A DNA stretch of 64,000 bases from positions 23,386-87,385 of the forward strand of contig JADFYB010000001.1 in NCBI GenBank assembly GCA_015233245.1. Reading direction: 5' to 3'. The first letter of the stretch is position 1; every line of letters begins with the position of its first letter. Made by a program: the position numbers and the translations under genes. The notes beneath the pieces were generated by a model, which did no database searches, was not told the DNA's origin, and worked only from the letters and a program-made list of their open reading frames with translations. This DNA comes from Nitrospirota bacterium. GTDB lineage: Bacteria > Nitrospirota > Thermodesulfovibrionia > Thermodesulfovibrionales > Magnetobacteriaceae. Shown here one piece after another: positions 923 through 28,281 of this stretch.

Positions 923-3040
923 CTAAATGACACCCAGGTTTGCCTTATAAAGTCTGACATTTGGGAAATCGTTGTAGATTTCCTCAAAGAGGTTTTTATC
1001 AAAAGTCCCAAGAATAAACATTTTGTTGAAGTTTGACTGATAGGTCTCTTCATCCATGAGAAGCATGTACAGGACGGTTTGGCCTGACTTTATTATTTCA
1101 AGATATTGACCGTAGGGATTATTTATGAAAGTTTGAGTGTCCTTTATTTGACCATTATCTACCGTGAGTATGGATTTAAGCGGGATGTTGCCATTGAGAA
1201 TTCCGGTTGAGCTCTCAACTGTGATCTCTTTAAGAAATTTAATTGGTTTTTTATATTCACGGGCTTTAGCATCGAAATCCCAGTTGCCTATATTGGTAAC
1301 GGCATTAAATGTGTAAATCATATCGTTTGAAAAAAGAACATACACATTGTCACCGTTTAGGCCAAAAGCGGAGCTGATTGCTTTCTGTATTTTCTCCTTA
1401 GCATTTTTGTTCTCATTGCCCTTACTTTTTGAAGCCTCATGGTCTATGTAACAGAGGATATTGTAAAGCTCCCGTTGACTTGTAACCGTTAACCCTCTTG
1501 CCGTAAAATATGTGATTTCCTGAGTCGTAGGGCCTGGGTCATGATATGTCTTAAGGCCAATACTCTGCAGGGCATACCCAGTGTCCCACCACGTAAACAT
1601 CTTAGAATCGGCTGGTACGATTTTTTTTATCTCATTAAATCCCTTATATATTTTCCCGTTAATTAACACAAATGGATTATATAAATAAGCAGGAATAAAG
1701 TCGGTAACAAAGAAAAGTGCAAATATTAAAATATAGAGAAGGATTTCTTTCTTTAATCTTATTTTCTCAATTAGATTTTTAAAAGGAGATACAGACAGTG
1801 TTAGCAGGTAGCCTAAACCAGCTCCGGCAAATGGCGGTAAATACATGGCAAGGCGAATTTCACTCTTAAAGGAAAGAAGTCCGATTAAAAACACTGGCAA
1901 AAGCATAAAAGCTGCTCTGAAGTTCTGGATTATAAAAGCAAGAAAACCTAAAATTCCAATCAATGGCAGCCATGCTCCGCTATAAAAGACAGTGGACATA
2001 ACCACTTGAGGTGTATAATGTTTTGTTTCTCTTGTAAAACTTTCCCTCCCGGGAAAACTGTCTCCTGTCTTTATTGTTTCCACTGATGATATTGTTGAAA
2101 ATCTGTGTGTAAAAATCCGGAGTTTGTCTAACTCAGGCGTCAATGCATTAAAGCACAGCGTAAATACGATAAGAAAAAGCACTGCTGAAATAAAGCGTAT
2201 TAACAGTTCCCACTTTTGAAGGTCTCTGTAGCGGTAAAGCAAAAAACCAATAAGGATTATAATAAAAAACACTACTAAAAGCAGAGTAACACTTAGGTGC
2301 AGCAATGACTTATTTAAAAAGGAAAACGAAAAACACAGCAAAAACGAAACAGCGATATGTTTATACTTTACCTTATAAAAAACAAGTGAAATAACTAGTA
2401 TAGCAAGGTAAATAAAGGTGAACCATCTGTGTCCCTGATACCACCAGTCAAAAAAAGACAAGGCAACACCGGTAAGAGCTGAGTACAGATAAATCTGCTT
2501 ATGGGTGTTAGCTGCAGCAGTTGATTTTAAAATAAAAAATGAGACGAGAAATGGGAAGAATAAATTTAACAGATCCGTATCAAATCTGCCAATAGCAGTT
2601 CTTTCAAAATATATCTTACCAAATGTGCCAAAGACAGAGGCCGAAATAGCCATACCTGGGTGTCCGGTTTTATAAAAAAACAACGATAGTGGAATTATAA
2701 AGAGTCCTGAAAGAAAAAACACCGTGTAAAAAGCAGCCCGTGTGGTGTTGTTTCCAAAAAGCCCTGAAAGCTTAACCGCTATTACGCTGATAAGAGGGGT
2801 TTCAAGTGCCGGAGTTCCTTGTTCGTACTCATGGGCATTAATAATCCAGTCGTAGGCGTCAACTGTTGACATCATGGGGGTGCTGCCGTAAAAGAACAGA
2901 TCCGGCTGCATTTTCCATTTACTCATTGCATGGTACCTGACAAATACAGAAAGAAACAGACACAACAATACAAGCGCACCAAAAATAATTTTTCCAGTTG
3001 TTATTTTTGTTGTAGCCTCAGGGCTAGTATCCTCTGTCAT
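923..3040 (-). CDS. STT3/PglB/AglB-family oligosaccharyltransferase (GT-C, polytopic membrane protein with C-terminal soluble domain)
   Basis: 705 aa with many N-terminal TM helices. Three family motifs are present. The first-loop acidic motif is STVDAYDW (aa 58-65). GRFDTDLLNLFFP (aa 151-163) resembles PglB GYYDTDML. The signature WWDxG is WWDTG at aa 484-488, nt 1577..1591, which I checked by back-translation (TGG TGG GAC ACT GGG). Confidence 0.8.
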   Translation of the reverse strand: MTEDTSPEATTKITTGKIIFGALVLLCLFLSVFVRYHAMSKWKMQPDLFFYGSTPMMSTVDAYDWIINAHEYEQGTPALETPLISVIAVKLSGLFGNNTTRAAFYTVFFLSGLFIIPLSLFFYKTGHPGMAISASVFGTFGKIYFERTAIGRFDTDLLNLFFPFLVSFFILKSTAAANTHKQIYLYSALTGVALSFFDWWYQGHRWFTFIYLAILVISLVFYKVKYKHIAVSFLLCFSFSFLNKSLLHLSVTLLLVVFFIIILIGFLLYRYRDLQKWELLIRFISAVLFLIVFTLCFNALTPELDKLRIFTHRFSTISSVETIKTGDSFPGRESFTRETKHYTPQVVMSTVFYSGAWLPLIGILGFLAFIIQNFRAAFMLLPVFLIGLLSFKSEIRLAMYLPPFAGAGLGYLLTLSVSPFKNLIEKIRLKKEILLYILIFALFFVTDFIPAYLYNPFVLINGKIYKGFNEIKKIVPADSKMFTWWDTGYALQSIGLKTYHDPGPTTQEITYFTARGLTVTSQRELYNILCYIDHEASKSKGNENKNAKEKIQKAISSAFGLNGDNVYVLFSNDMIYTFNAVTNIGNWDFDAKAREYKKPIKFLKEITVESSTGILNGNIPLKSILTVDNGQIKDTQTFINNPYGQYLEIIKSGQTVLYMLLMDEETYQSNFNKMFILGTFDKNLFEEIYNDFPNVRLYKANLGVI

Positions 3041-4611
3041 GGGCTCACCTCGTTGTATTTCATAACGTAAATACAGTACCTTTCATCGCCAACTATGCCG
3101 TTAGCAAATGCCTTTATCAATACTATATTGTTTCGTTTCATTTGTTGTCGTGTAAGTGGGCTGTTTAACACAAGCAGGATATTGCTTTTCCTCAGTCTCA
3201 TAAATTTTTCTATTTCTTTCAACACGCCATCACTGTTAGTATAGAGACGCTTATTGTTTGAAATGACGTATGTACCGTAGCGCCCAGTTATTGGATAAAA
3301 CATACTTTTACCAAGATAAACTGCAACAGAGGTGGTTTGGTAGTCGGCATCAGCTGCTATTGGTAATAAGTCAAGATTGTTGGCTTTTATGAAATCAGCA
3401 GTATCTTTGGCATCTGTAAATGGATACATAGCAGATATTGTTATTACTACTAAGGCGGCAAATATATGGATTATTATCAAAAAATTTAACCATACGTTTT
3501 TTTTCCCCTCAAAAAACAAACAAAACTTGTTTAAAAAAGGCAGTTTGAATGCAACAGGCCTGTAATAATAAGCGAGCCATAGAGAGCAGATAAAAATCAT
3601 AAAAAGGTGTCCTCTGTGTCTTATCATGCTTCCATATAAAAGATCACTAAAAGCCATAATAGCAGCATTTCCTGTTATGAAAAAAAATGCGGCAACCGGA
3701 CGTCTAATAACCATGAAAAAAGTAACAAACAAAAAAGTTATTCCTACTACAACTCTCGTAAAAAACAGCACTAAAGGGTTTTGGGATATATAGCTGATTA
3801 TATTACCACTCCAGAAGTTTTGTTTAAACATAGGTATCGGGAAATACACGTTGTAAACATTTGCAATCTGATTGAGGAGGCGCATGAAATCATACGTGGG
3901 GTCACCAGTCAAAAATTCTGGTTTTTTAAGATACAGGGAATCAGGCGGCGGCAGCATTTGATATATTGAAACAAGAAGGCCAGAGATGAAAATAAGGGCG
4001 CTTAGTGCAAAAATTAGCCATGTTTTAGTATCTTTTTGCTTGTTAATCAAAAATTCAAAACACAAAGTCAGAGCAAACACAATTGCTACAACAGATGCGT
4101 AGGCATTTATCTGGCACATTAAAAAGAGCACAACTGACAGTAATATGTAGTTTCTCCTGCCTTCAACAGGTCTTATCATATAGGCAAAAATAAAAAACAA
4201 CAATACTCCCATAGAATAATTTCTACTTATGACGGCATACTCAAAAAAAGTAAAGTATCCAAAAATAAAGAAAATGCGTTGCCATTTTTTAAAAGGAGCA
4301 AACTTTAAAAATACAAAAGCGGCAGCCGTGGCAATGCACAGGTGAGCCATCTGCATTGCAGCCATGTTGTTGGTAAGTTTGGTAAGCAGATAGACTATCA
4401 GTACCCAAAGTCTAGGATGTCCCTCATACCTGTAGTTATAAAAAAGCTCAGATAAAGAGGTGCTTTCCTTTGCTATTGCCCACGGCCCTAACTCATCTCT
4501 CCACATTACGTGGTTAAGCAGATTTATCAGGGTAACAGCGAAATAGACACAGATAGCAATGTAAAGAGCCGTATCAGGCTTTTTTAATATCCCTTTTATT
4601 TTATCCGTCAT
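3037..4611 (-). CDS. Polytopic membrane protein, probable GT-C-fold glycosyltransferase (ArnT/PMT-like)
   Basis: 524 aa with about 12 predicted TM helices. An acidic RDE motif sits in the first loop (HVMWRDELGPW), as in the GT39/GT83 families, followed by a soluble C-terminal domain. Its stop overlaps the STT3 start (ATGA at 3037..3040). Confidence 0.5.
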   Translation of the reverse strand: MTDKIKGILKKPDTALYIAICVYFAVTLINLLNHVMWRDELGPWAIAKESTSLSELFYNYRYEGHPRLWVLIVYLLTKLTNNMAAMQMAHLCIATAAAFVFLKFAPFKKWQRIFFIFGYFTFFEYAVISRNYSMGVLLFFIFAYMIRPVEGRRNYILLSVVLFLMCQINAYASVVAIVFALTLCFEFLINKQKDTKTWLIFALSALIFISGLLVSIYQMLPPPDSLYLKKPEFLTGDPTYDFMRLLNQIANVYNVYFPIPMFKQNFWSGNIISYISQNPLVLFFTRVVVGITFLFVTFFMVIRRPVAAFFFITGNAAIMAFSDLLYGSMIRHRGHLFMIFICSLWLAYYYRPVAFKLPFLNKFCLFFEGKKNVWLNFLIIIHIFAALVVITISAMYPFTDAKDTADFIKANNLDLLPIAADADYQTTSVAVYLGKSMFYPITGRYGTYVISNNKRLYTNSDGVLKEIEKFMRLRKSNILLVLNSPLTRQQMKRNNIVLIKAFANGIVGDERYCIYVMKYNEVSP

Positions 4612-4687: not shown

Positions 4688-6502
4688 ATGGTAAAAGAAT
4701 CGGCACCCTGGAAAGGGATAATCAAGTCTTTAGGACTCGTATTTGGAGATATTGGTACAAGTCCAATTTACACACTGACCGTAATCCTCCTGCTTATTGA
4801 GCCAACACAGGACAACATAACCGGTGTTTTGTCGCTGATTGTGTGGACGTTGATTGTGCTTGTGACGATAGAGTACGCGTGGCTTGCAATGTCTTTGGGT
4901 AAAAAGGGAGAGGGTGGAACTGTTGTGCTTAAAGAGCTGTTGACTCCTTTATTAAGAAATGTCTGGAGCGTACGACTGGTATCCACTCTTTCGATTATCG
5001 GCATATCGCTGCTAATTGGGGACGGGGTTATAACGCCCGCAATAAGTATTCTTAGTGCGGTGGAGGGAGCAAGGCTGATTCCAGGATGGGAAAATTTAAC
5101 CACTAACCAGATACTGATATCATCAGGGATAATTGCCATAGTGCTGTTTTTATTTCAAAGAAAGGGGACCGAGAAAGTGGCAAGCGCCTTTGGCCCTATT
5201 ATGGTCATATGGTTTGTGTGTCTTAGTGTTTCGGGAGTGCTTTCACTTCAGGAATTTCCACACGTATTAAAGGCTGTGAATCCGTACTATGGGATAAAGT
5301 TCATGTCTGACAAGGGATTAAGCGGTTTTTTTATTTTATCTGAGGTGACTCTTTGTGCCACAGGCGGTGAGGCTCTCTATGCCGACATGGGACACCTTGG
5401 CAGAAAGCCAATAGTGAAGGCATGGTACTTTGTTGTTGTTGCGCTTATATTAAATTACCTTGGGCAGGGAGCTTATGTAATAAAACATCCTGCGGCTAAA
5501 AATGTGCTTTTTGAGATGATTTTTCATCAAGCACAGTTTCTTTATGTACCTTTTTTAGTTCTAAGCATAATGGCAACCATCATAGCCTCTCAGGCTATGA
5601 TAAGCGGTATGTTTTCTATAGTTTATCAGGGCATCACCACACGGGTTATGCCGATGTTTAAGGTAGATTACACATCCGAGAAGCTGCGCTCTCAGATATA
5701 TATAGGGTTTGTTAACTGGTTTTTGCTGATTTCGGTGCTGTTTATAATGAACAGATTCAGGGAATCAAGTAATCTTGCCGCTGCCTACGGACTTGCTGTC
5801 ACGGGAACTATGTCACTTACAGGGTTTTTCATGACATGGATTTTCTTTTTGAAAAAACAGTATATTCGATCGTCTTTTTCTCTTGCTGTTTTCATAATAG
5901 ATCTGATATTTTTCCTTTCCAACATGTTTAAAATCCCACATGGCGGATACTGGTCTGTAATCATTGCTTCTATCCCGCTGTCAATAATATTGATATACAC
6001 GGCAGGACAAAAGAGATTATACAAGAGCTTAAAGCCAGTTCCTCTGGCCGATTTTTTGCCTAAATACACAGAAACCTACAGAACTTTGAACAAAATACGA
6101 GGTACGGTCTTATATTTTGCGAGGGATATGCAGTTGATACCTCCGTATGTGGTAAGTACAATGTTTACAGCCAACATAATTTACGAGGACAATGTCATTG
6201 TATCCATCCGTGTAACGGATGAGCCTTTTGGTGTAAAGGGCTGGCCGGAGAAGGAGGCTGCACCAGGGTTAAGAGCATTTAAAATAGAGATAGGCTACAT
6301 GGAGGTTATTGATGTGGAGGCAATATTAAATATAAACAGCATTTATGAAAAGACCATATTTTATGGTGTGGAGGATATAGTCACAAGGAATTTTATATGG
6401 CAAATCTTTTCAATAATAAAACGGCTTACGCCTGCCTTTGTTCAGTTCTATGCCCTGCCTTCTTATAAACTCCGTGGAGTTGTCACAAGAATTGATATGT
6501 AG
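4688..6502 (+). CDS. kup: KUP/HAK/KT-family potassium uptake protein
   Basis: 604 aa. The N-terminal signature GLVFGDIGTSPIYT is present, with 12-TM architecture and a C-terminal cytoplasmic domain. A GGAAAG RBS precedes the ATG. Confidence 0.95.
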   Translation: MVKESAPWKGIIKSLGLVFGDIGTSPIYTLTVILLLIEPTQDNITGVLSLIVWTLIVLVTIEYAWLAMSLGKKGEGGTVVLKELLTPLLRNVWSVRLVSTLSIIGISLLIGDGVITPAISILSAVEGARLIPGWENLTTNQILISSGIIAIVLFLFQRKGTEKVASAFGPIMVIWFVCLSVSGVLSLQEFPHVLKAVNPYYGIKFMSDKGLSGFFILSEVTLCATGGEALYADMGHLGRKPIVKAWYFVVVALILNYLGQGAYVIKHPAAKNVLFEMIFHQAQFLYVPFLVLSIMATIIASQAMISGMFSIVYQGITTRVMPMFKVDYTSEKLRSQIYIGFVNWFLLISVLFIMNRFRESSNLAAAYGLAVTGTMSLTGFFMTWIFFLKKQYIRSSFSLAVFIIDLIFFLSNMFKIPHGGYWSVIIASIPLSIILIYTAGQKRLYKSLKPVPLADFLPKYTETYRTLNKIRGTVLYFARDMQLIPPYVVSTMFTANIIYEDNVIVSIRVTDEPFGVKGWPEKEAAPGLRAFKIEIGYMEVIDVEAILNINSIYEKTIFYGVEDIVTRNFIWQIFSIIKRLTPAFVQFYALPSYKLRGVVTRIDM

Positions 6503-6517
6503 CTTTGACAGCGGTGT

Positions 6518-6545
6518 TTGACAACATCGGAACATACGTTATAAA
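6518..6545 (+). promoter_or_regulatory. Putative sigma70 promoter of the first repeat-module gene
   Basis: TTGACA (6518..6523), a 16-nt spacer and TATAAA (6540..6545) lie about 35 nt upstream of the ATG at 6580. The -35 block is conserved upstream of the next gene (7241..7262). Confidence 0.4.
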
Positions 6546-6579
6546 ATAGCTCAACATAGTATGGAACAGGTGACTTCAC

Positions 6580-7218
6580 ATGTCATATGAGGATAGAGAT
6601 TACGAGGGCTATGTAGAGAGCTTTGACGAAACCGGACTTGCAGGCTGGGCTTATAATAGAAAGTGTCCGGATACCCCCGTAGAGGTCGAAATCTACGACC
6701 TGTCATCTCAGACACACTTAACCATTACCGCTGATTTGCATAGAAAGGATCTTGAAGATACAGAAAGAGGTAATGGCTGTCATGCCTTTAAATGTGCTTT
6801 CCCTGCTATTATGGCTGATAATGAACATCACACAATATCTGTAAAAATTTCTAATTCCGATTTCTTTTTGCAAAATAGCCCTTTTGAAATTTATATACCT
6901 GCCGAGTATGAAGGCTATATTGATGGTTTTGATGAAAATGGGTTTACAGGGTGGGCATATGCTAAGAAAAGTCCCGATACATCTGTTGAGGTTGAGATAT
7001 ATGATGTAACAACTCAGACTCTTATTAGTACCATGACAGCCAATACATACCGGAGGGATCTTGAGGAGTCAGGGATAGGCAATGGCTGTCACTCATTTAA
7101 GTTTTATTATCCGGCATACATGTCTGATAATAAAAATCATACAATATCCGTTAAGATTTCTAATTCTGATTTTTTGTTGGATAATAGCCCCTTTACAGTT
7201 TGTCTGCCTGCAGTTTAA
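6580..7218 (+). CDS. Protein made of two tandem copies of a ~102-aa module (no catalytic domain); function unknown
   Basis: 212-aa ORF. Both halves align: YEGYVESFDETGLAGWAYNRKCPDTPVEVEIYD...GNGCHAFKCAFP...HTISVKISNSDFFLQNSPF versus YEGYIDGFDENGFTGWAYAKKSPDTSVEVEIYD...GNGCHSFKFYYP...HTISVKISNSDFLLDNSPF. An AGGTGA RBS is present. Confidence 0.8.
   Translation: MSYEDRDYEGYVESFDETGLAGWAYNRKCPDTPVEVEIYDLSSQTHLTITADLHRKDLEDTERGNGCHAFKCAFPAIMADNEHHTISVKISNSDFFLQNSPFEIYIPAEYEGYIDGFDENGFTGWAYAKKSPDTSVEVEIYDVTTQTLISTMTANTYRRDLEESGIGNGCHSFKFYYPAYMSDNKNHTISVKISNSDFLLDNSPFTVCLPAV
6601..7212 (+). repeat. 2 x 306-bp in-frame coding tandem repeat
   Basis: The YEGY module start recurs at aa 8 and aa 110 (period 102 aa). 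Confidence 0.8.
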
Positions 7219-7284
7219 TCTGGCTTGCATCGTTACAGCCTTGACAACATAGGTAAATACGTGGCTAAATATTAGTAGAGTTAC

Positions 7285-9162
7285 ATGATTTGGGAAAAGT
7301 TAAAAAATACGTATAAGGGGAATAGCGGTTCTGAGGGTTATGTTGAGACCGTTGATACAACCGGGTTTTCAGGATGGGCGTATAATAAGAAGACTCCGGA
7401 TTCGCCTGTTGAGCTAGAAATTTACGATTCCTCCACTCACATCAGCACAATTAAGGCTGATACTTATAGAAAGGATCTTGAGAAAGCAGGCAAAGGTAAT
7501 GGCTGCCATGCGTTTAGTTTTAAGTTTCCACTGCACCTTATAGATAATAAAAATCATGATATATCTGTAAAGATTTCCAACACGGATTACTTTTTAAATA
7601 ACACACCTTTTACTATAAACATACCTATTGATTCTGAGGGAAATTATGTTTTTGAAGGCTATGTTGAGGCCGTTGATACAACCGGGCTTTCAGGGTGGGT
7701 GTATTTTATTGGGACTCCTGACACTCATGTTGAGATAGAAATTTATGATTCATCCACTCACATCAGCACAATTAAGGCTGATACGTATAGGCAGGATCTT
7801 GAAAAGGCAGGAAAAGGTGATGGCTGCCATGCATTTAGTTTCAAATTCCCGCTTCAGCTTAAAGACGATAAAAATCATGATATATCTGTAAAGATTTCTA
7901 ACACGGATTACTTTTTAAATAACAGCCCTTTTACTATAAACATACCTATTGATTCTGAGGAAAATGATGTTTTTGAAGGATATGTAGAGGCTGTTGAAAT
8001 AAGCGAGTTTTCAGGGTGGGCGTACAATAAGAAGACTCCGGATTCTCCTGTTGAGATAGAAATCTATGATTCATCCACTCTCATCGGCACAATTAAGGCC
8101 GATGCATATAGAAGGGATCTTGAGAAGGCAGAAATTGGCAACGGCTGTCATGGTTTTAGATTTAAATTCCCACCGCATTTTGTAGATAAAAAAAATCATG
8201 AAATATCTGTAAAGATTGCTGACACGGATTACTTTTTAAAAAACAGTCCTTTTACAATATACATACCTACAGATATTGATTTTATATCTATTGACATCAC
8301 CAATAACTGTAACCTGAGGTGTCCTTTTTGTCTTGTTGATCGCAGAGGTTTAGTAAATACAGATTTTATGTTGCTTGAAACTTTTAAAAAAGCAATAATG
8401 TTTTTGCCATACCTGCCCGTGGCTTCATTTTATTTATCATGTCTTCACGAACCAACGCTTCATCCTGATTTAGCAAAATTTCTGGAAATTATACCCCTAC
8501 AGTGGCGTAACAGGGTTTTTTTTACAACAAACTTAGCAGCTAACCTCTCTGATGATATTCTTATAGCAATGAGCAAAAGCGGTATTCATCACATTAATAT
8601 TTCAGTAGATACATTAAACCCGTCATTATATCCAAAATTAAGAAAAGGTGGTATTTACAAAAGATTCATGAATAATATTGAACGCTTAACTTCTTTTTTC
8701 TATAAAGAACCCCTTGCTCCGGAACTTCACTTTATAACTGTGGCCTTAAAATCAAACATGAGTGAAATCCCGGATATTGTGGCTCAGTGTGCAAATAAAT
8801 ATCTATCCGTATCGCATGAAGTAAGGTATCCTTTTAATGTAAACAGCATAGATGATACGTGGCGGAAAGATAATTTTATAACTGAGGCAACCGATTGGGA
8901 TGTTATTGCAAATTCGCTGAAAGATATCAGCGCCAACTATGTTTTATGCCGTCCTGAGGATGGCTATTATGATACTTTTGCCTCATCTGTCGATTATTAC
9001 GAAACAGGGCAGCATCATATGAAAGCAACACCTCCTGAAAAGCCTATACAGTTGAGGATTGATCATAGGGGTGTTATCAGAGTTTTAACCAGAGAAGAAT
9101 ATTTCTATGTAAACATACATATACTTAATAATCCTATGAAGCTCTTTACTGCTTTCTTCTGA
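7285..9162 (+). CDS. Three copies of the ~107-aa module fused to a C-terminal radical SAM domain
   Basis: 625 aa. Modules start at about aa 17, 124 and 231. The radical SAM CX3CX2C is NCNLRCPFC at 8308..8331. A GGE-like CLHEPTLHP and FFTTNLA follow. No SPASM-type Cys cluster, signal peptide or TM segment. Confidence 0.85.
   Translation: MIWEKLKNTYKGNSGSEGYVETVDTTGFSGWAYNKKTPDSPVELEIYDSSTHISTIKADTYRKDLEKAGKGNGCHAFSFKFPLHLIDNKNHDISVKISNTDYFLNNTPFTINIPIDSEGNYVFEGYVEAVDTTGLSGWVYFIGTPDTHVEIEIYDSSTHISTIKADTYRQDLEKAGKGDGCHAFSFKFPLQLKDDKNHDISVKISNTDYFLNNSPFTINIPIDSEENDVFEGYVEAVEISEFSGWAYNKKTPDSPVEIEIYDSSTLIGTIKADAYRRDLEKAEIGNGCHGFRFKFPPHFVDKKNHEISVKIADTDYFLKNSPFTIYIPTDIDFISIDITNNCNLRCPFCLVDRRGLVNTDFMLLETFKKAIMFLPYLPVASFYLSCLHEPTLHPDLAKFLEIIPLQWRNRVFFTTNLAANLSDDILIAMSKSGIHHINISVDTLNPSLYPKLRKGGIYKRFMNNIERLTSFFYKEPLAPELHFITVALKSNMSEIPDIVAQCANKYLSVSHEVRYPFNVNSIDDTWRKDNFITEATDWDVIANSLKDISANYVLCRPEDGYYDTFASSVDYYETGQHHMKATPPEKPIQLRIDHRGVIRVLTREEYFYVNIHILNNPMKLFTAFF
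7333..8268 (+). repeat. 3 x 321-bp in-frame coding tandem repeat
   Basis: CCGGG of the GFSGW codons occurs at 7361 and 7682. TCCACTCACATCAGCACAATTAAGGCTGATAC recurs 321 bp apart. Boundaries are approximate. Confidence 0.85.
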
Positions 9163-9230
9163 CTCCATGATGCAGAATCAGAATAGCATGACAGGATCAT
9201 GTCGTATGAAACACAGGGCGATGTGACATT

Positions 9231-11396
9231 ATGCCGCTTAAAACACAAAAATATGAAGGGTGTATAGACCGCTTTGACAAAACCGGATTTTCCGGGTGGG
9301 CTTATTACAAAAACACTCCGGATACCCCCGTTGATATTGAAATCTATGATGCTGTAACTCAAACAAATATCGGGACAGTTACAGCAGACATATACAGGAA
9401 AGATCTGGAAGATGCTGGCATTGGCAACGGTTACCACGCGTTTAGATTTGATTTTCCCGGCCATATGGCAGACGGTAAAGATTACACGATAACTGCAAAG
9501 ATTGTTAATACTGATTTCATTCTGAGTTCCATCTCATTTCCAATCAATATACCCGTAGAAATTGAGTATGAAGGGTATATTGAGTTCTTTTACAAGACCG
9601 GATTTTCCGGGTGGGCTTATAGCAAGAAAACTCCAGATACCCCTGTTGATATTGAAATCTATGATGCAGTAACTCAAACACTTATTGATACAGTTACGGC
9701 AGACATATATAGAAATGATCTTGAAGATGCAGGCATTGGCAATGGCTATCATGCGTTTAGATTTGATTTTCCAGACCATATGGCAGATGGTAAAGAGCAC
9801 ACGATAACAGCAAAGATTGTTAGTACTGATTTCATTCTGAGTTCCAATGTTTTTATGATCAATATCCCTGTAGAAATTGAGTATGAAGGGTATATTGAAG
9901 TCTTTGACAAAACAGGATTTTCCGGGTGGGCTTATAACAAAAAAAATCCTGATACCCCTGTTGATATTGAAATATATGATGTAACGACCAAAACACATAT
10001 TGCCATTATAACAGCAGACACATACAGAAAAGACCTTGAAGAGTTGGGCATTGGCAATGGCTGCCATGCGTTTAGATTTGATTTCCCCGACCATTTGGCA
10101 GATGGTAACGATCACTCGATAACTGCAAAGATTTTTAATACTGACTTTTTTCTGAGTTCCAGTTTTTTGATAGTCAATATACCTGTAGAAATTGAGTATG
10201 AAGGGTATATTGAAGGCTTTGGCAAAACCGGGTTTTCTGGCTGGGCATATAACAAAAAAACTCCTGACACTCCTATTGATATCGAAATATATGATGTAAC
10301 AACAACTCAAACACATATCGGTACAGTTACGGCAGACACATACAGGAAAGATCTTGAAGAGTCGGGCATTGGCAATGGCTGCCATGCGTTTCATTTCTTT
10401 TTCCCTGAATATATGGCAGATAACAAAACTCATACGATATCTGTAAAAATTCGTAATACTGACTACATTTTAAAAGATAGCCCTTTTAGTATCGGCATGA
10501 ATATGGATATTGAGTTTATAACAGCTGACATTACTGATAACTGTAATCTGAGGTGTCCTTTTTGCCCAGTAACTCATAAAGGGTTAATGGATAACGGTTT
10601 TATGACAATTGAAACTTTTACAAAAGTAATATCGTTTCTACCATACCTGCCCGCTGCCTCATTTTATTTATCATCTCTTTATGAGCCTACACTTCATCCT
10701 GAGCTGGCAAAGCTCCTGGAACTTATCCCTCTGCAATTGCGCAAGAGAGTGTTGTTTACAACAAACTTAGCTGCTAATCTATCGGATAACATTCTTATCG
10801 CTATGAGTAAAAGCGGCATTCACCATATTAACATTTTGGCAGATACGCTTAATCCGTCCTTGTATCCTAAATTAAGAAAAGGCGGTATCTTTGACAGATT
10901 CATCAATAACCTTAAGCGTTTGGCATCGTTATTTTCTCAGCAGCCTCGTGCTCCACAACTCCACTACATAACCGTAGCTTTAAAATCCAACATAGGCGAA
11001 ATTCCGGACATTGTAACTCAATGTGCTACTAAGTACGCAAGCGTATTTCATGAAATAAGGTATCCTTTTAACGTAACCGGCATAGATTCTCAGTGGAAAA
11101 AAGACAATTTCATAACAGATGAGGCAGATTGGGATACTCTTGAAAAATCTTTGAAAGACACCGGTATCAGTTATGTTTTACATCGCCCGCCTGAAAACTA
11201 TTACAGCAAAGTTGTTTCACCAGCAGATTGCTGTGAAACAAGACAGCATCAGACGCTGGCGTTACCGCCTGGAAAGCCTATACAGTTGAGGATTGACTAT
11301 AAAGGAACTATCAGAATTCTAAACAGAGAAGATGATTTTCTTGTGAATGTTAATTTGCTGGATAATCCGGTAACGCTGATCAGTACTTTTTTTTAA
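9231..11396 (+). CDS. Four copies of the ~105-aa module fused to a C-terminal radical SAM domain (paralog of 7285..9162)
   Basis: 721 aa. Modules start at about aa 8, 113, 218 and 323. CX3CX2C (NCNLRCPFC) lies at 10542..10565. The C-terminal ~300 aa is about 70% identical by eye to the previous gene, for example LAANLSD.ILIAMSKSGIHHINI and TLNPSLYPKLRKGGI. Confidence 0.85.
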   Translation: MPLKTQKYEGCIDRFDKTGFSGWAYYKNTPDTPVDIEIYDAVTQTNIGTVTADIYRKDLEDAGIGNGYHAFRFDFPGHMADGKDYTITAKIVNTDFILSSISFPINIPVEIEYEGYIEFFYKTGFSGWAYSKKTPDTPVDIEIYDAVTQTLIDTVTADIYRNDLEDAGIGNGYHAFRFDFPDHMADGKEHTITAKIVSTDFILSSNVFMINIPVEIEYEGYIEVFDKTGFSGWAYNKKNPDTPVDIEIYDVTTKTHIAIITADTYRKDLEELGIGNGCHAFRFDFPDHLADGNDHSITAKIFNTDFFLSSSFLIVNIPVEIEYEGYIEGFGKTGFSGWAYNKKTPDTPIDIEIYDVTTTQTHIGTVTADTYRKDLEESGIGNGCHAFHFFFPEYMADNKTHTISVKIRNTDYILKDSPFSIGMNMDIEFITADITDNCNLRCPFCPVTHKGLMDNGFMTIETFTKVISFLPYLPAASFYLSSLYEPTLHPELAKLLELIPLQLRKRVLFTTNLAANLSDNILIAMSKSGIHHINILADTLNPSLYPKLRKGGIFDRFINNLKRLASLFSQQPRAPQLHYITVALKSNIGEIPDIVTQCATKYASVFHEIRYPFNVTGIDSQWKKDNFITDEADWDTLEKSLKDTGISYVLHRPPENYYSKVVSPADCCETRQHQTLALPPGKPIQLRIDYKGTIRILNREDDFLVNVNLLDNPVTLISTFF
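9252..10496 (+). repeat. 4 x 315-bp in-frame coding tandem repeat
   Basis: TCCGGGTGGG occurs at 9291, 9606 and 9921, and the variant TCTGGCTGGG at 10236, an exact 315-bp period. The fourth copy carries one extra codon. Confidence 0.9.
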
Positions 11397-11436
11397 TGCC
11401 AGCCATCTATACACTTCTGAGTTAGTATAATACAAA

Positions 11437-11512
<76 letters not shown>

Positions 11513-11734
11513 ATTAACACGCTTAAAATCTTAAGCATATAGAGTTTAACTATTTTGCCGGGTTATTGTCAACTTAATAAATTTACGACAATCAAAAAAA
11601 AAATTACTCAACTTTTTTATTATATAATACAAAGCATTATTACCACGAAATACACGAAATTTACATTTTTTTTAATTCATCTTATATAGTTAATTGTAAA
11701 AAACACTCAGAAAATAGTATCTTACAATCACTGT

Positions 11735-13237
11735 ATGAACACACCTGAGCACGGGAATGACCTTTTACGTGATGAGCAAGACTCTGTCAGTCTGATTGCA
11801 AGGAATTATTTTTTTATTTTTATAGCACGTATCCTTAGAATCGGCACCGGTATTTTATTGCTGTTTGGCCTTGCACGGGTTCTTACGGTAGTGGATTTCG
11901 GTAACTTTGTCTTTGTGGTAAGCCTTACGGCAAGTGTAATGAGCATAGCTTTCTATGGGGTTGGACAGGCTCTTGTGCGCGAGGTGTCACAAAACAGGGA
12001 TAAAGCCTCTCTTTATATTGGAATAGCGCTTAAAGTCAGGGTCTGGCTGGCTGTTGCTTCATTTGCAGCCGTAATCGCTATTGCCATTATTATGAAGGTA
12101 GAGAAACTTATTCTTATCGCTATTATCATCTCCGCTGTTGCTGAAATATTCAGGGCTTTTTCAGATCTCTCTAAAGACGTATTCAGAGCATACGAGAAAA
12201 TGCAATACGAAATGGTTCTTACAACCGTTTACTCTGCCGTATTGCTTGTTATCGTAATCGCTATTGTTTATTTCAAGAGCGGATTTATGCCTGTTGTTAT
12301 CGCAATTTTAGTGGCTCAGGTTGTACAGTTTATATTAAGCATCCGGATTATGTTAAAGAAATTTGTAGTTCCAGCTAAAGTGTTTCCAATGGCCGACCTC
12401 GGGATATTTCTCAGAGATGCTTTCAGTCTGGGCCTTGGCGTACTGTTTGTACAAATTATTGGCCGGCTGCCAGCTTTGCTTCTGAAATACTTAAAGGGGG
12501 CTGAGGAGGTTGCTTTTTTTGAAACTGCCCACGGCATTATCATTCAGACGCTGGTTCTTAGCGAGGTGCTGATGACTGTGTTTTTACCGCGATTTTCTTT
12601 TTTAGCTGCTTTACAAGACAGAGACAGAATTAAAGATATTGGTAGCAAATTTTTTAAGATACTCCTTGTGTTTTCATTGAATGTTTCAATCCTGTTTTTT
12701 GTCTTTTCAAGGGAAACCATGGGGATACTCTATGGGCACAAGTATGATTCATCGTGGATGATTTTAAGGGTCATCTCTTATTCTGTAGTGTTTTTATTTT
12801 TAGCTAATTTTGCCCATCTGTTTTTTATTTCCTTAAAGATGCAAAAGCAGTTTATACTTTGTAATTTAATTTCTCTCGTACTGATAGCCATTTTGCTTGT
12901 CGCTTTGGTTCCTGTATATGGGTACAGGGGGGCTGCTCTTGCCTCTTTAACGGCATATTTTTCAAATTTTCTTGTTTCACTTTTTGTATTAAACAGGTCA
13001 GTGTTAAAGCTTCCCGTCTTTACTGTAGTGAAAGCCATGGCGTACTCTGCCGTGTCGGTTTGTACCGGGATTTTGATAAAGGATTATAATGTTTACATTG
13101 CAGTCATAACAACTGAGGTGATGTTTTTAGGATTAGCAGTTTGTGGAGGCATTTTTGATATAAATGAGAAAATTTACATTATGGATATACTGAGACGATT
13201 AAAAGTACGCGAAAGGGGGGTTTTTCAACAGCCATGA
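11735..13237 (+). CDS. Polysaccharide/oligosaccharide flippase (Wzx-like, MOP superfamily)
   Basis: 500 aa with 12-14 predicted TM helices throughout. The layout is typical of polysaccharide biosynthesis protein family members. It is the first gene of a tight glycan operon. Family assignment rests on topology and context. Confidence 0.6.
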   Translation: MNTPEHGNDLLRDEQDSVSLIARNYFFIFIARILRIGTGILLLFGLARVLTVVDFGNFVFVVSLTASVMSIAFYGVGQALVREVSQNRDKASLYIGIALKVRVWLAVASFAAVIAIAIIMKVEKLILIAIIISAVAEIFRAFSDLSKDVFRAYEKMQYEMVLTTVYSAVLLVIVIAIVYFKSGFMPVVIAILVAQVVQFILSIRIMLKKFVVPAKVFPMADLGIFLRDAFSLGLGVLFVQIIGRLPALLLKYLKGAEEVAFFETAHGIIIQTLVLSEVLMTVFLPRFSFLAALQDRDRIKDIGSKFFKILLVFSLNVSILFFVFSRETMGILYGHKYDSSWMILRVISYSVVFLFLANFAHLFFISLKMQKQFILCNLISLVLIAILLVALVPVYGYRGAALASLTAYFSNFLVSLFVLNRSVLKLPVFTVVKAMAYSAVSVCTGILIKDYNVYIAVITTEVMFLGLAVCGGIFDINEKIYIMDILRRLKVRERGVFQQP

Positions 13238-14211
13238 GACTTAAAGTTGAGCTGATAAAAGATATTTTCAGGTTTATTTACTATTATCCGTTTAGGTACC
13301 TTGTCGGGCTTCTTCCATTTACGTTTTCATACAGCCTGATTAAAGCCCTTGGGAGTATCGGCTTTAATATTGATAAAAAGAAGGAGTTTGCCTATTCTAA
13401 AGAACTTCAAAGGCTTTTTCCGAATAAGAAAGCAGAGGAAATCCGTTACCTTGCAAAGGAGACTTTACTGAATTTTCTGCAAAATGAGATAGAAACCCTG
13501 ATGTTTCCTAAGATTAACAAAGACAACATAGACTGGTTTATAAAGTATGACGGACTTGATAATCTGGATGAGGCGCTAAAGCAGCAAAGAGGAGTTATTT
13601 TGCTTTTTGCGCACTTTGGGGCAAACCAGATGGTGATGCCTGCAATCGGATATAAAGGATACAAGATGAGCCAGTTGGGAGCGCCTGCAACTGTCTGGAC
13701 TGAAAAGGAAAATGTATCTTACATAAAAAAGAAGAACATGGAAATCAAATGGCGGCACGAACAAACCCTTCCTGTAACCCATATTAATGTGTTTGGTTCT
13801 CTTAAGGAGGCATTCCTGTGTTTAAAGAGAAACGAGATACTTGGAGTGGCAATTGATGGCGGGGGCGGCAAGGAATGGGTGGAGGTAGAGTTTTTTGGCA
13901 AGAAGGCGCTTTATTCTACTGGTGCCATAGATATTGCTCACAGGACAGGAGCAGTAATACTGCCTGTCTTTATGGTCAGAGGGCAGGACAGCCGCCACAA
14001 GATGATTATAGAAAGTCCTCTTGTATGCCCTGAAGGAGCTGATAAAACAGAAACCATAACAAATTACACAGCCGCTTTTGTCAGTCGGCTGCAGTCTTAC
14101 GTGGCAAGATACCCGTGGCATTACATATACTATCTTGCGTGGCGCAGCAAGATAGCACTAAACGGTGACGATGTGCCGTATTTTAAAGATGACACTTTAA
14201 GCGTGTGTTAG
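13234..14211 (+). CDS. LpxL/HtrB-family (lipid A biosynthesis-type) acyltransferase
   Basis: 325 aa with one N-terminal TM helix. VILLFAHFGANQM resembles the H.GnWE active-site block of lauroyl/myristoyl acyltransferases, and a downstream DGGG block is present. ATGA overlap with the flippase stop. Confidence 0.55.
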   Translation: MRLKVELIKDIFRFIYYYPFRYLVGLLPFTFSYSLIKALGSIGFNIDKKKEFAYSKELQRLFPNKKAEEIRYLAKETLLNFLQNEIETLMFPKINKDNIDWFIKYDGLDNLDEALKQQRGVILLFAHFGANQMVMPAIGYKGYKMSQLGAPATVWTEKENVSYIKKKNMEIKWRHEQTLPVTHINVFGSLKEAFLCLKRNEILGVAIDGGGGKEWVEVEFFGKKALYSTGAIDIAHRTGAVILPVFMVRGQDSRHKMIIESPLVCPEGADKTETITNYTAAFVSRLQSYVARYPWHYIYYLAWRSKIALNGDDVPYFKDDTLSVC

Positions 14212-14237
14212 CTAGTAAGGCAAAAGGGGTAACACAA

Positions 14238-15758
14238 ATGAGAATATTACTGATTAGACCGCCGTACACAAGATTAAAAGGGGTGGGGCAATCGCCGTAT
14301 TTTCCGCTGGGACTCGGCTACATAGCGGCAGTGCTAAGGGAAAACGGTTACGAGGCGGTTATATATCATGCCGAAAATCCAAAAAGTAAAGCTGAGTGCG
14401 TATTTCCGGATGCTGATATGACTTTTAATTTTCGCTCTAAGAGTTACCACCGTTACATGGAAATCTTAAAAGATGACACTCACTTTGTTTGGACTGAGGT
14501 CAGACAGACTCTCAAAGATTACAGGCCTGACATGGTTGGTATATCAATTTTGTCAGTAGAGGTCGGTTCAGCACTAAAGATAAGTCAGCTTGTTAAAGAG
14601 TACAATCCTAGTTGTTATGTCCTTTGGGGGGGGTTGCATCCGAGCTTTTTAACCGATGAGAGTTTAATGCTGCCTGAGGTTGATTTTGTAATAAGGGGTG
14701 AGGGTGAATATCCCACTCTTGAGCTTTGCAGAGCGCTTGAGGGACGTATGCCCTTAAACTCTGTTGAGAGTCTTTCGTTTAAGGAAAATGGAAATATTAT
14801 CCATAACCCTGTGCGCATGGCAGTGGAAAATGTGGACGATATCCCGTTTCCTGCCCGTGATTCGGTACTGTATCCTGAGACATTTGATTTCAAATCACTG
14901 GGCAGTATGATTGTTTCACGGGGGTGTCCTTTTAGGTGCACATTCTGTTCGTCAAGAAATTTCTGGGATAAAAAGGTGCGAATGAGAAGCCCAGGCAATG
15001 TTATTAAGGAAATACAACTGCTTAAGGAGACCTATGGCACTAACTTTATAATGTTTTGGGATGACTCATTTACTATCAACAGAACTGTCATAGAAAAGTA
15101 CTGCAAATCACTCATAGAGTCTAAGGTAAACGTAAGCTGGAAAACTGCTACGCGGGCGGATTTGATAGATGAGCCACTTCTTGAGCTGATGACAAAGTCA
15201 GGGTGTGTGAAACTTGAAATAGGGGTGGAAAGCGGAAGCGACCGAATAAAAAAAATAATCTCTAAGGATGTTTCAAACGAACAGATTAAAAAAGCTTTTT
15301 CACTTATCTCTAAAAAAGGAATCGGGGTTGGCGGTTTTTTCATGGCCGGATTCCCGGATGAAACACTGGAGGACCTTGCAGAAACCTTTAAGCTTATGCA
15401 GGAACTTAAGGCCGGGGAGCTTGCCTTTAATATTTTTGACCCTATGCCGGGAAGCAATGAGTACGAAAAGTGTATAGCTGAGGGACTCGTTCCAAAAAAT
15501 CCGGATTGGACAAATTTCCCCTTTTGGCCTGATGCCTATTATGTTAAAAATATTAAAAGAGAGGATTTTGACAACTACGTAAACATGATAGCCAGATGGC
15601 TTTACGATTACAATAACAAATTTACTACAAAGCTTAAACGAAGCAAACACCTTATCCGTTACTTGCTGAAAAATGACCCGGTGTTTTTAATCAAAAAAGT
15701 TTTCAAGTATCTTACAAGGCGTAAAAAGGTTCATTCGGCATCTGTTACGGGTAACTGA
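14238..15758 (+). CDS. B12-binding-domain radical SAM protein (class B)
   Basis: The N-terminal MRILLIRPPY...GLGYIAAVL...DMVGIS pattern fits a cobalamin-binding domain. It is followed by SRGCPFRCTFCSS (CX3CX2C). I prefer the ATG at 14238 (AAGGGG RBS) over the track start at 14205. Confidence 0.85.
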   Translation: MRILLIRPPYTRLKGVGQSPYFPLGLGYIAAVLRENGYEAVIYHAENPKSKAECVFPDADMTFNFRSKSYHRYMEILKDDTHFVWTEVRQTLKDYRPDMVGISILSVEVGSALKISQLVKEYNPSCYVLWGGLHPSFLTDESLMLPEVDFVIRGEGEYPTLELCRALEGRMPLNSVESLSFKENGNIIHNPVRMAVENVDDIPFPARDSVLYPETFDFKSLGSMIVSRGCPFRCTFCSSRNFWDKKVRMRSPGNVIKEIQLLKETYGTNFIMFWDDSFTINRTVIEKYCKSLIESKVNVSWKTATRADLIDEPLLELMTKSGCVKLEIGVESGSDRIKKIISKDVSNEQIKKAFSLISKKGIGVGGFFMAGFPDETLEDLAETFKLMQELKAGELAFNIFDPMPGSNEYEKCIAEGLVPKNPDWTNFPFWPDAYYVKNIKREDFDNYVNMIARWLYDYNNKFTTKLKRSKHLIRYLLKNDPVFLIKKVFKYLTRRKKVHSASVTGN

Positions 15759-15771
15759 CAGTGGCTGATAA

Positions 15772-21316: not shown

Positions 21317-21330
21317 ACAATGAGAGCCCT

Positions 21331-22455
21331 ATGAAGATCAATATTTATAAAAAATGGATAATCATTTTCTTTTTTATATTATTTTCTCCTGTTTTTTTCA
21401 ATTTAATTATTGATTCAAACGGGTATTTGCAAACTATAAAAGTTAACAGGCTAAATGCAAACAAGTACGAAATCATATCAGAGTATGCAACAAAACTGTA
21501 TTATGCAAGGCGGGCACAACCGGAGGCTTTAATGCTTGGCACATCAAGGATGATGGTTTTTAAACCCTCTGGTGTACAACACCATATAAATATGAAAACT
21601 TACAACCTGTCCCTTTCCGGTTCAAATGTTTACGAACAGTTCAGCTATTTTTACTATATGGTTAAAAACTACAACATAAGGTATGTGATTTTAAGTTTGG
21701 ATTTTTTTTCATATAATCCTGAAAATAAAAACAAGATTGGTTTTACTGAAAGGCGGTTTAAGCATGGATTTTTGCTCAGTGATTTTGAAGCGGAGCTTTT
21801 GGGGCTACAGAGTCTGAAATCAAGTATCGACACTGTAAGGAACAACATTACCAGGAAATGTGAACCCATAAACTTGTCAGAGGGTTACAGCACGTGGTGT
21901 GAGAAGGAAAAAGCGTTGCAGGAATACGGCGATATAATCATCCAGCGAGACATGAAAAACTCCCTGCGGGTGTTTTCCACAGACCCGCTTGGTTACAATT
22001 CTGAGGCATTTAGAAATCCTGATTCAATTAACGATAATCTCCGGCTTCTTAAACGCATTGTTGACACTTGTAAGGAGCGGAGAATTACCCTGAAACTCTA
22101 TATCAGCCCGGTGTATAAGAATCAGTTTGATTTAATATACGCAATGGGACTAAGTAAGACTTATGAAAAGTGGAAATATGAAATAGCGCAACTATCTGAT
22201 TACTACGATTTTACAGGACGAAACACTGTCACATCAAATCAAAACCTGTGGTGGGACACCTCGCACCTTAAGAGTCAATACGGTAAGTACATCTTCGCAC
22301 GTATCTTTAGCGATAACCAAACATCAGTTCCAGAGGATTTCGGCATACTTATGACAAAAGAAAATGTCACACAAAACATTGCAAAACTCCACACCCAGGT
22401 TAGATCTAAAGACATAAAACAAATCCTACAATTAAGCGGCGATGGCGACGATTAA
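21331..22455 (+). CDS. Hypothetical membrane-anchored protein, candidate DltD/AlgJ-type partner of the MBOAT
   Basis: 374 aa with one N-terminal TM helix. A GTSR block (LMLGTSRMM) is reminiscent of SGNH/DltD block I. It lies 15 nt after the MBOAT gene. Function is inferred mainly from position. Confidence 0.4.
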   Translation: MKINIYKKWIIIFFFILFSPVFFNLIIDSNGYLQTIKVNRLNANKYEIISEYATKLYYARRAQPEALMLGTSRMMVFKPSGVQHHINMKTYNLSLSGSNVYEQFSYFYYMVKNYNIRYVILSLDFFSYNPENKNKIGFTERRFKHGFLLSDFEAELLGLQSLKSSIDTVRNNITRKCEPINLSEGYSTWCEKEKALQEYGDIIIQRDMKNSLRVFSTDPLGYNSEAFRNPDSINDNLRLLKRIVDTCKERRITLKLYISPVYKNQFDLIYAMGLSKTYEKWKYEIAQLSDYYDFTGRNTVTSNQNLWWDTSHLKSQYGKYIFARIFSDNQTSVPEDFGILMTKENVTQNIAKLHTQVRSKDIKQILQLSGDGDD

Positions 22456-28214: not shown

Positions 28215-28281
28215 GTTAGTTAAACATCTCTTTTTATTGTATAATTCCAGCGACAAATGTATCAAATTTCCGGCATATAAG

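Follow-up and report, generated by a model that had tools for sequence, protein, structure and literature searches.

This analysis concerns three tandem genes in a 64,000-nt stretch of DNA from a Nitrospirota bacterium (contig JADFYB010000001.1 of assembly GCA_015233245.1; hereafter the window, meaning the whole stretch), in which an earlier note, made from the sequence alone, had described a repeated protein module. The genes carry nine copies of a predicted immunoglobulin (Ig)-like module, and in genes 2 and 3 the modules are followed by a radical S-adenosylmethionine (SAM) domain, abbreviated rSAM below. We found that the combination of module and rSAM domain is a widespread family trait that occurs in several phyla and is not peculiar to this locus. 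The locus represents an uncharacterised rSAM subfamily whose Ig-like domain has no name and occurs very widely, and it is nothing categorically new. The locus, here called the cassette, comprises the following features.

6518..6547, + strand: putative promoter-like site upstream of gene 1 (TTGACA, 18-nt spacer, TAAAAT), which starts with a 22-nt element
6580..7218, + strand: gene 1, 212 aa, two Ig-like modules only (6598-6903 and 6904-7209)
7241..7262, + strand: second copy of the 22-nt element (TTGACAAC...ATACGT), upstream of gene 2
7285..9162, + strand: gene 2, 625 aa, three modules followed by an rSAM domain
7327..8289, + strand: module array of gene 2 (7327-7647, 7648-7968 and 7969-8289; 321-bp period)
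8290..9159, + strand: rSAM domain of gene 2 (CX3CX2C at 8308-8331, then an SCLHEPTLHP block and a TTN block)
9231..11396, + strand: gene 3, 721 aa, four modules followed by a diverged rSAM domain
9249..10508, + strand: module array of gene 3 (9249-9563, 9564-9878, 9879-10193 and 10194-10508; 315-bp period; the last is the proximal module)
10509..11393, + strand: rSAM domain of gene 3 (CX3CX2C at 10542-10565; family-invariant residues replaced)
11437..11512, - strand: tRNA-Ala(GGC), found by ARAGORN (Rfam, 64.6 bits), the conserved downstream boundary of the cassette

Gene 1 has no catalytic domain. The protein encoded by gene 3 is 100% identical to one already on record from a metagenome-assembled genome named 'Nitrospirae bacterium' (P0001). 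No hydrophobic segment or hydrophobic N-terminus was found in the three proteins, the highest 19-residue Kyte-Doolittle window being 1.42, in agreement with the earlier statement that they lack signal peptides and transmembrane segments. When positions 6000-12000 were searched for RNA elements, riboswitches included, the tRNA was the sole match. A 299-aa open reading frame (ORF) runs antisense through the module array of gene 3 (9534-10433, - strand) and is repetitive too; it is most likely a by-product of codon usage in the repeats and not a gene.

Module copies and their history

The nine modules had been counted as 2, 3 and 4 in three same-strand genes, and both the ORF coordinates and the counts were as claimed. 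A profile built from diverse modules and run on six-frame translations of the window found exactly nine copies, all of them in genes 1-3 and each with an i-Evalue of 1e-30 to 1e-36. Cut at the GW anchor, the copies measure 102-107 aa. Exact DNA periods had also been claimed for all three genes. Tandem Repeats Finder recovered those of gene 2 (321 bp, 2.9 copies, 7332-8269) and gene 3 (315 bp, 3.9 copies, 9252-10469), with a match rate of 83% and an indel rate of 0% in each, and the landmark strings lie where they had been placed: TCCGGGTGGG at 9291, 9606 and 9921 with a variant at 10236 in gene 3, and CCGGG at 7361 and 7682 in gene 2. The 306-bp period of gene 1 did not stand as an exact one. 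Its two copies (61% amino acid and 69% nucleotide identity) have diverged, contain a compensated 1-residue indel and fall under the threshold of the program, so that the period holds for the anchor motifs only.

Since the source is a metagenome-assembled genome, we considered the explanation that the repeat structure is an assembly artefact. The module copies differ from one another by 14-35% in DNA, the longest exact match between any pair of modules is 34 bp, and the reading frames are unbroken. An independent Nitrospirota assembly (GCA_015232995.1, referred to below as L052) encodes orthologues with 2 modules (218 aa), 3 modules (626 aa) and 4 modules (720 aa), and the complete genome of Ca. 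Magnetomonas plexicatena has the same cassette, with 2, 1 and 3 modules. The shortness of the shared matches and the identical counts in L052 make an artefact very unlikely, and we rejected this explanation, to which we attach a negligible probability.

As the earlier note had observed, copies within a gene are more alike (65-84% protein identity; 61% in gene 1) than copies of different genes (51-67%). It took this as a sign of recent expansion or homogenisation in place; the identities and the pattern of synonymous divergence (dS) bear out expansion within each gene, but with dS at about 0.4-0.6 the expansion was not very recent. The distal copies of one gene differ by a dS of 0.42-0.56, comparisons with the proximal copy of gene 3 give 0.73-1.03, and copies of different genes exceed 2. 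Whole-gene dS between the window and its sister genome L052 is 0.23-0.43, below that of copies within a gene. This ordering indicates that the extra copies arose within the individual genes, later than the gene duplication but earlier than the separation from L052. All nine copies are held by purifying selection, with a ratio of nonsynonymous to synonymous divergence (dN/dS) of 0.09-0.42 in all module comparisons, and the signature A[DN]..[YH]R.DL.....G.G.H.F is kept in 9/9 modules of the window. Measured against L052, dN/dS is 0.19 for gene 1 and likewise 0.19 for the rSAM domain of gene 3.

The three genes are related one-to-one to those of Ca. Magnetomonas, where the module counts are 2/1/3 as opposed to 2/3/4 in the window and L052. 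Gene 1 corresponds to a two-module protein of 218 aa (module pairs 80% and 76% identical), gene 2 to a one-module enzyme of 411 aa (rSAM domain 85% identical; best module match the proximal one, at 75%), and gene 3 to a three-module enzyme of 615 aa (rSAM domain 81%, proximal module 81% and whole protein 78% identical). Orthologue identity is 94% for proximal modules, 75-86% for distal modules and 92-94% for rSAM domains; the proximal module is thus conserved as tightly as the catalytic domain. The ancestral unit was one module plus an rSAM domain; genes 2 and 3 are duplicates within this clade, and the extra N-terminal modules of each came from tandem duplications within that gene. Orthologues of gene 1 were found in close Nitrospirota relatives only (a search with gene 1 returned 4 proteins), and the three-gene cassette is restricted to a clade of magnetotactic-type Nitrospirota.

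Family architecture and the Ig-like module

A search with gene 3 returned 204 proteins, the best 120 of which were listed and used for module counts. All of these are rSAM proteins (119 of 120) except P0117, which is of glycosyltransferase type, and a hidden Markov model (HMM) of the module placed at least one copy N-terminal to the rSAM domain in 119/119. Most of the listed homologues have a single module and a length of 400-450 aa; about nine have two modules, P0045 has three, and four modules occur, among those listed, only in the Nitrospirota clade of the window. The named sources include Bacteroidales, Vicinamibacteraceae, Luteitalea and Rhodospirillales, to which a genome scan added Acetobacter persici, Acidocella facilis, Commensalibacter communis, Rhodovastum, Anaerolineae and Thermoanaerobaculia. 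The idea that the architecture was special to this locus was therefore abandoned, because fusions of module and rSAM domain recur widely, usually with one module. At positions 7962-10012 of locus L016, Ca. Magnetominusculus dajiuhuensis encodes a module-less rSAM homologue of 423 aa that has a C-terminal coiled coil. A search of the published literature on the architecture, on WbsX N-terminal domains and on Ca. Magnetomonas yielded nothing on this rSAM family.

The module is confidently predicted to be an Ig/FN3-like beta-sandwich. AlphaFold2, run on a 28-sequence alignment, modelled it with eight strands and a predicted local distance difference test score (pLDDT) of 96.2. In a Foldseek search of the PDB, the matches of this model were all generic, to FN3 domains, nanobodies and glycosidase Ig-like domains, with a best E of 7.6e-3, template-modelling (TM) scores of 0.32-0.54 and match probabilities of 0.75-0.99. 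No Pfam family reached its gathering threshold with the module (Lectin_like, 18-20 bits against 27; PhiKZ_gp244, 24 against 27), no NCBIfam model matched at threshold, and a profile search of PDB sequences gave no significant match. The module had been likened to an unnamed one, and the checks with Pfam, NCBIfam, and AlphaFold with Foldseek placed it in no named domain of known function. Its family signature is G..D...GWA.D..P..V...A..FR.DL...G.G.G.HGF..LP, in which Gly4, Gly16 and Trp17 are invariant.

Several candidate identities of the module were set aside. PhiKZ gp244 and Lectin_like lie below the Pfam threshold as just given, and TcdA/cell-wall-binding repeats matched weakly (E 0.02-0.2). 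The C-terminal domain of fluorinase/SAM hydrolase gave a short local match, DLEKAGIGxG, to the module profile and in NCBIfam (E 0.1 and 2e-4), at module residues ~45-65 (for example residues 45-69 of gene 3). It was taken for a chance motif: no fluorinase is among the top 50 module fold matches listed, and Pfam reported no SAM_HAT.

Word-index protein searches gave just 4 proteins for the module alignment and 4 for gene 1, and an HMMER search was needed. Run exhaustively on 1.84 billion representative proteins, it found the module in 14,523 (E <= 1e-3), of which 939 at E <= 1e-30. Arrays reach 15 copies in single proteins, and module-only proteins with 3-5 copies are common. In a viral structure library, a true module was found in one uncharacterised siphovirus protein (E 4.5e-8, 27% identity), the other matches being generic. 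We surveyed partner domains with Pfam in 108 of the top-scoring proteins among the 14,523, a sample biased to multi-copy proteins. One set of partners is typical of secreted or surface proteins: Por_Secre_tail (15/108), He_PIG, Big_9, PKD, CARDB, SBBP, BACON, Peptidase_M23 and Amidase_2. Another belongs to cytoplasmic building or tailoring of glycans: GT2, GT1/GT4, WbsX, Sulfotransfer_3, class I methyltransferases and DltD. A rhamnosidase also turned up, as did esterases of the GDSL and SASA families. The earlier note had likened the module to one in glycosyltransferase- and sulfotransferase-type proteins, and these partners show the resemblance to be correct but incomplete; the module is equally common in secreted proteins of the type IX secretion system (T9SS) and in Ig-rich surface proteins. 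It is a general-purpose beta-sandwich, not one specific to cytoplasmic glycan enzymes.

In its eight-strand beta-sandwich and its tandem arrays, the module resembles the Ig-like and FN3 arrays and the beta-sandwiches of carbohydrate-binding module (CBM) type found on carbohydrate-active enzymes, and like them it is joined to glycosyltransferases, glycan esterases, a rhamnosidase and T9SS surface proteins. It differs from these families by its own signature, by having no Pfam or NCBIfam model and by the remoteness of its PDB match. Unlike CBM-type systems, the modules of this locus lie in cytoplasmic proteins, and it is the partner domains that, indirectly, suggest carbohydrate binding.

The distribution of the module bears on a reading in which the arrays bind no substrate and act as rigid spacers or as a self-associating scaffold, with gene 1 as a scaffold or adaptor. 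Array length, from one to four modules of roughly 4 nm each, would then set the distance between the rSAM domain and a partner, or their stoichiometry. Tandem Ig-like domains generally form stalks, and several observations are of the kind that such a role would produce: copy number is what changes fastest in the cassette (2/1/3 against 2/3/4), distal copies evolve faster than proximal ones, secreted proteins carry arrays of up to 15 copies, many proteins consist of 3-5 modules alone, and the module-less homologue has its coiled coil instead. On the other hand, the GW / R.DL / G.G.H.F signature is present in every copy, the distal ones included, and is under purifying selection. A pure spacer would not need it, and its conservation therefore counts against that role. 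Nor is any membrane anchor or partner-binding element visible at the N-termini. We consider a spacer function doubtful, though it deserves to be kept in view.

The radical SAM domain and the divergence of gene 3

The rSAM domains of genes 2 and 3 are ~290 aa long and 67% identical, close to the 70% that had been estimated by eye. Each protein contains one CX3CX2C motif, the ligand of the [4Fe-4S] cluster in rSAM enzymes, in the form CNLRCPFC (residues 342-349 in gene 2 and 438-445 in gene 3), which is invariant in 82 family members. The only Pfam family that passes is the generic PF04055, with 60.8 bits for gene 2 and 47.8 bits for gene 3 against a gathering threshold of 29.5. The other cysteines are not common to genes 2 and 3, indicating that there is no SPASM or twitch cluster, as had been stated; beyond CX3CX2C, the family conserves a single cysteine, C161, which is absent from gene 3. 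All NCBIfam matches of the domain stayed at 14-62 bits against cut-offs of 170-855 and covered the first half of the core only, the best being the tungsten-cofactor maturase TIGR04317 (62 bits against 380), with MoaA at 48 against 284-325. The view that no characterised rSAM family has this architecture was thus upheld. Genes 2 and 3 gave no match to the cobalamin-binding family PF02310, which is present in a neighbouring gene (14205-15758), and no Pfam match to an RRE domain.

SPASM and twitch enzymes (MoaA, PqqE, anSME, SkfB, SuiB and TIGR04317) gave the best NCBIfam matches, which run over the N-terminal half of the rSAM core with its blocks CNLRCPFC, EP and TTN and the ribose motif NIS.D; the family lacks their C-terminal auxiliary-cluster cysteines, has no RRE domain, and scores far under the cut-offs. 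AlphaFold modelled the proximal module together with the rSAM domain at pLDDT 91.5 and a predicted TM score (pTM) of 0.80, as a partial TIM barrel followed by a small C-terminal part made of a beta-hairpin plus helix. The best fold matches of this model were GDGT-MAS, DesII, SuiB, viperins and SkfB, at E of ~1e-10 to 1e-8 and 13-15% identity.

Among solved structures, DesII was the closest relative by profile (E 1.3e-4, 24 bits, ~210 residues, rSAM core only), and it also ranked among the top fold matches (E 2.2e-10, TM 0.52). DesII is a TDP-4-amino-4,6-dideoxy-D-glucose deaminase, a single-cluster rSAM enzyme that acts on a TDP-sugar (PDB 8HZV/8HZY), and has a six-helix N-terminal domain together with a C-terminal one that consists of a beta-hairpin plus two helices (PMC11434129). 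The family resembles it in the single CX3CX2C, the absence of an auxiliary cluster and the small C-terminal beta-hairpin-plus-helix domain. It differs in identity (~15%), in having a beta-sandwich where DesII has six helices, in the C-L-H-E that takes the place of the G-G-L-E motif, and in its location outside deoxysugar gene clusters. DesII is therefore the closest characterised relative but a remote one, and the match does not amount to membership. Viperin and pVip have a similarly compact single-cluster core with a short C-terminal extension (TM 0.65-0.72 when normalised to viperin); they differ in sequence (13-15% identity), and viperins have no Ig-like N-terminal domain.

With SuiB and SkfB among the best fold matches, weak NCBIfam matches to peptide maturases and a module-only protein encoded directly upstream, the enzyme might be thought to act on a protein or peptide, as do maturases of ribosomally synthesised and post-translationally modified peptides (RiPPs) or rSAM enzymes that modify proteins. 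Recognition would then be the task of the module, and gene 1 might encode the substrate or a decoy. A search for RiPP precursors found no conserved small ORF within 700 bp of homologues at 16 loci, which argues against such a role, as do the absence of an RRE domain and of a SPASM or twitch cluster and the confinement of gene 1 orthologues to the Nitrospirota clade when the enzyme family is widespread. We regard a peptide substrate as quite improbable.

We then compared genes 2 and 3 at the positions that the family conserves, using the 61 columns that are at least 90% conserved over 81 homologues in an 82-sequence alignment, the window sequence being excluded. Alignment with DesII, whose GGE and ribose motifs for SAM binding have been assigned (PMC11434129), placed the S-C-L-H-E-P block at the position of the GGE motif (Cys161 at G187, His163 at L189 and Glu164 at E190 of DesII) and the invariant Ser of HHINIS.D at the ribose-motif residue S240. 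In gene 2 and its orthologues, the residues at the GGE and ribose positions are all kept. Nearly all residues that are 90-100% conserved are present in gene 2; the exceptions include Y128->R, and four further ones are substitutions common to the whole Nitrospirota clade. By contrast, gene 3 and its L052 orthologue carry Cys482->Ser and His484->Tyr (giving SSLYEPTLHP), Ser536->Leu (NILAD) and Asp448->Thr, the last being Asp127->Thr in family numbering. The Ser->Leu change is already present in the gene 3 orthologue of Magnetomonas. Judging from these residues, we infer that gene 2 is the catalytically canonical copy and, because gene 3 has lost the invariant Cys and His at the GGE position as well as the ribose-motif Ser, that gene 3, whose rSAM domain purifying selection still maintains, is a functional paralogue that is either shifted in its function or chemistry or non-catalytic.

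Genomic context and candidate functions

In three Nitrospirota genomes, the cassette lies in a conserved block that consists of an STT3-type oligosaccharyltransferase gene and a gene for a 524-aa protein (both - strand), the potassium transporter Kup, genes 1-3 and the tRNA-Ala(GGC) (- strand), which also follows the cassette at 11862-11937 of L007 and 12204-12279 of L052. Past the tRNA, the window and L052 encode a Wzx-like flippase, an LpxL-like acyltransferase, a B12-rSAM protein and a 633-aa protein, while Ca. Magnetomonas has unrelated genes for FmdE, carbonic anhydrase and CbiC. Since the tRNA separates the downstream glycan genes from the cassette and Magnetomonas does not have them, they do not belong to it. 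In the window, these genes form a run of four at 11735-17673 (+ strand), in which the flippase and the lipid A acyltransferase are followed by the B12-binding rSAM protein, with best NCBIfam matches to BchE, ApyD and HpnJ that are all below cut-off, and by the 633-aa protein, which has no family match. The region beyond the tRNA-Ala resembles a variable region next to a tRNA.

On the other side of the cassette, the genes at 923-3040 and 3037-4611 (- strand), which encode the STT3/PglB-like oligosaccharyltransferase and the 524-aa protein (no Pfam or NCBIfam match), overlap by 4 nt. The former matches PF02516, scores 93 bits with NF050801, far below cut-off, and lies 3.5 kb from the cassette in the three Nitrospirota genomes; the pair may mark N-linked protein glycosylation in this clade. 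Farther away, the window contains a complete cellulose synthase operon (22479-30438, - strand) with BcsA carrying PilZ, BcsB, the GH8 enzyme BcsZ and BcsC. Beside it, genes for an MBOAT acyltransferase and a 374-aa protein of no assigned function (19829-22455, + strand) may serve polysaccharide acylation.

The 22-nt element TTGACAACATNGGNANATACGT occurs exactly twice in the window (6518-6539 and 7241-7262, + strand), where 0 occurrences are expected, and its conservation extends to L052 and L007, in which it lies upstream of the orthologous genes. Its copy at gene 1 forms part of a sigma-70-like promoter match with 11/12 consensus positions. The element is probably a duplicated promoter or operator, and because both genes 1 and 2 carry this conserved promoter-like sequence, they may be transcribed separately.

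The earlier note had proposed asking whether fusions of module and rSAM domain recur and with which neighbours. We clustered the neighbours in eight annotated contexts and 16 further loci (~24). The fusions do recur, but no neighbour family was shared across these loci beyond close relatives, and the typical neighbours of a homologue are housekeeping genes (TruB, ArgRS, RecA and UvrC). Glycosyltransferase genes were found next to the homologues of a few lineages only. In Ca. Magnetominusculus the start of a GT2 gene overlaps the stop of the module-less homologue, and a GT2 gene is adjacent in a related genome too; in one alphaproteobacterial genome, a GT2-GT4 gene lies directly upstream. Two side observations were made in the same survey: a GT9-type (heptosyltransferase-like) gene, judged by eye from its ORF translation, lies 3.5 kb upstream in L016, and genes for class I SAM-dependent methyltransferases lie within ~4-5 kb of the rSAM homologue at several unrelated loci (L005, L008, L012 and others), with no orthology among them. 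The surrounding glycan genes of the window had been taken as fitting a glycan-related role. With a conserved tRNA-Ala in between, their absence from Magnetomonas and the lack of a recurrent neighbour, this argument was given up.

The stand-alone housekeeping contexts would suit an enzyme whose substrate, like that of viperin, is small and soluble, for instance a nucleotide or metabolite, with the module as a structural or regulatory appendage that has nothing to do with glycans; the viperin fold match (TM 0.65-0.72, normalised to the target) and a weak PADLOC match to pVip (22 bits) point the same way. The PADLOC scores are marginal (22 and 14 bits), however, and the neighbours of the cassette are not defence genes and form no defence-island context. 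Identity to viperins is 13-15%, the module is consistently kept and as conserved as the catalytic domain, and the same module is joined to many glycan enzymes. Taken together, these points lead us to consider a small-molecule substrate of this kind unlikely.

Our tentative preference is for a substrate that contains a sugar and that the modules would bind or tether. We favour it because many enzymes of glycan metabolism carry this module, because DesII, the nearest characterised enzyme, has a sugar as its substrate, and because a glycosyltransferase is adjacent in several lineages. The STT3 gene 3.5 kb from the cassette in the three Nitrospirota genomes is a further point in favour. The rSAM domain would reductively cleave SAM and abstract a hydrogen atom from a sugar-containing cytoplasmic substrate, for which a lipid-linked or growing envelope glycan, or a nucleotide-sugar, is a candidate. 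The modules would bind or tether this substrate or else the apparatus of its synthesis, and additional copies would raise avidity or extend reach. Gene 1 is a module-only paralogue encoded upstream of the enzymes.

A number of observations weigh against a sugar substrate. Most homologues sit alone among housekeeping genes and have no recurrent neighbour, and the glycan genes downstream of the cassette are cut off by the tRNA and absent in Magnetomonas. The module is frequent in secreted T9SS and Ig-rich proteins and may be a neutral structural domain, and of the 14,523 proteins the partner survey took in only 108, all top-scoring and multi-copy. DesII is remote (24 bits, ~15% identity); the fold of GDGT-MAS, which acts on a lipid, matches nearly as well, and SuiB and SkfB (peptide) and viperin (nucleotide) match almost as well as DesII does. 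The stand-alone context, the remoteness of DesII and the presence of the module in secreted proteins keep the three other readings alive, namely those of a spacer, a peptide-modifying enzyme and a small-molecule enzyme.

A bolder version of the sugar reading, which we consider decidedly unlikely, is that these proteins represent a new class of radical enzymes that tailor glycans or glycoconjugates, with the Ig-like domain as a common docking or ruler unit on the growing envelope polymer and with a three-part machine in Nitrospirota. Gene 1 would be the scaffold, gene 2 the active enzyme, and gene 3 would set reach or specificity and not carry out the standard chemistry; the Ig-like unit, common to glycosyltransferases, sulfotransferases and methyltransferases, would assemble cytoplasmic tailoring enzymes. 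The WbdD-type rulers and the carbohydrate-binding domain of Wzt, from ABC-transporter O-antigen systems, are precedents for a tailoring enzyme positioned by a spacer or for a cytoplasmic beta-sandwich that recognises the end of a glycan. They are a functional analogy only: no sequence or fold relationship to them was found, and the cassette is without an ABC transporter or polymerase partner. To our knowledge, very few radical SAM enzymes act on polysaccharides or glycoconjugates. A widespread family in which a single-cluster rSAM core is joined to a domain otherwise seen on glycan-building enzymes would be a pointer to envelope chemistry that has yet to be explored.

The pair formed by genes 2 and 3 is a natural experiment on the family-invariant Cys and His at the position of the GGE motif, and the cultured carriers of the family, Acetobacter persici, Acidocella facilis and Commensalibacter communis, make the question of its function testable by genetics. 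As for the module, it is an unnamed domain of at least 14,523 protein clusters, and to name and characterise it would improve the annotation of thousands of proteins, among them glycosyltransferases, tailoring enzymes and surface proteins.

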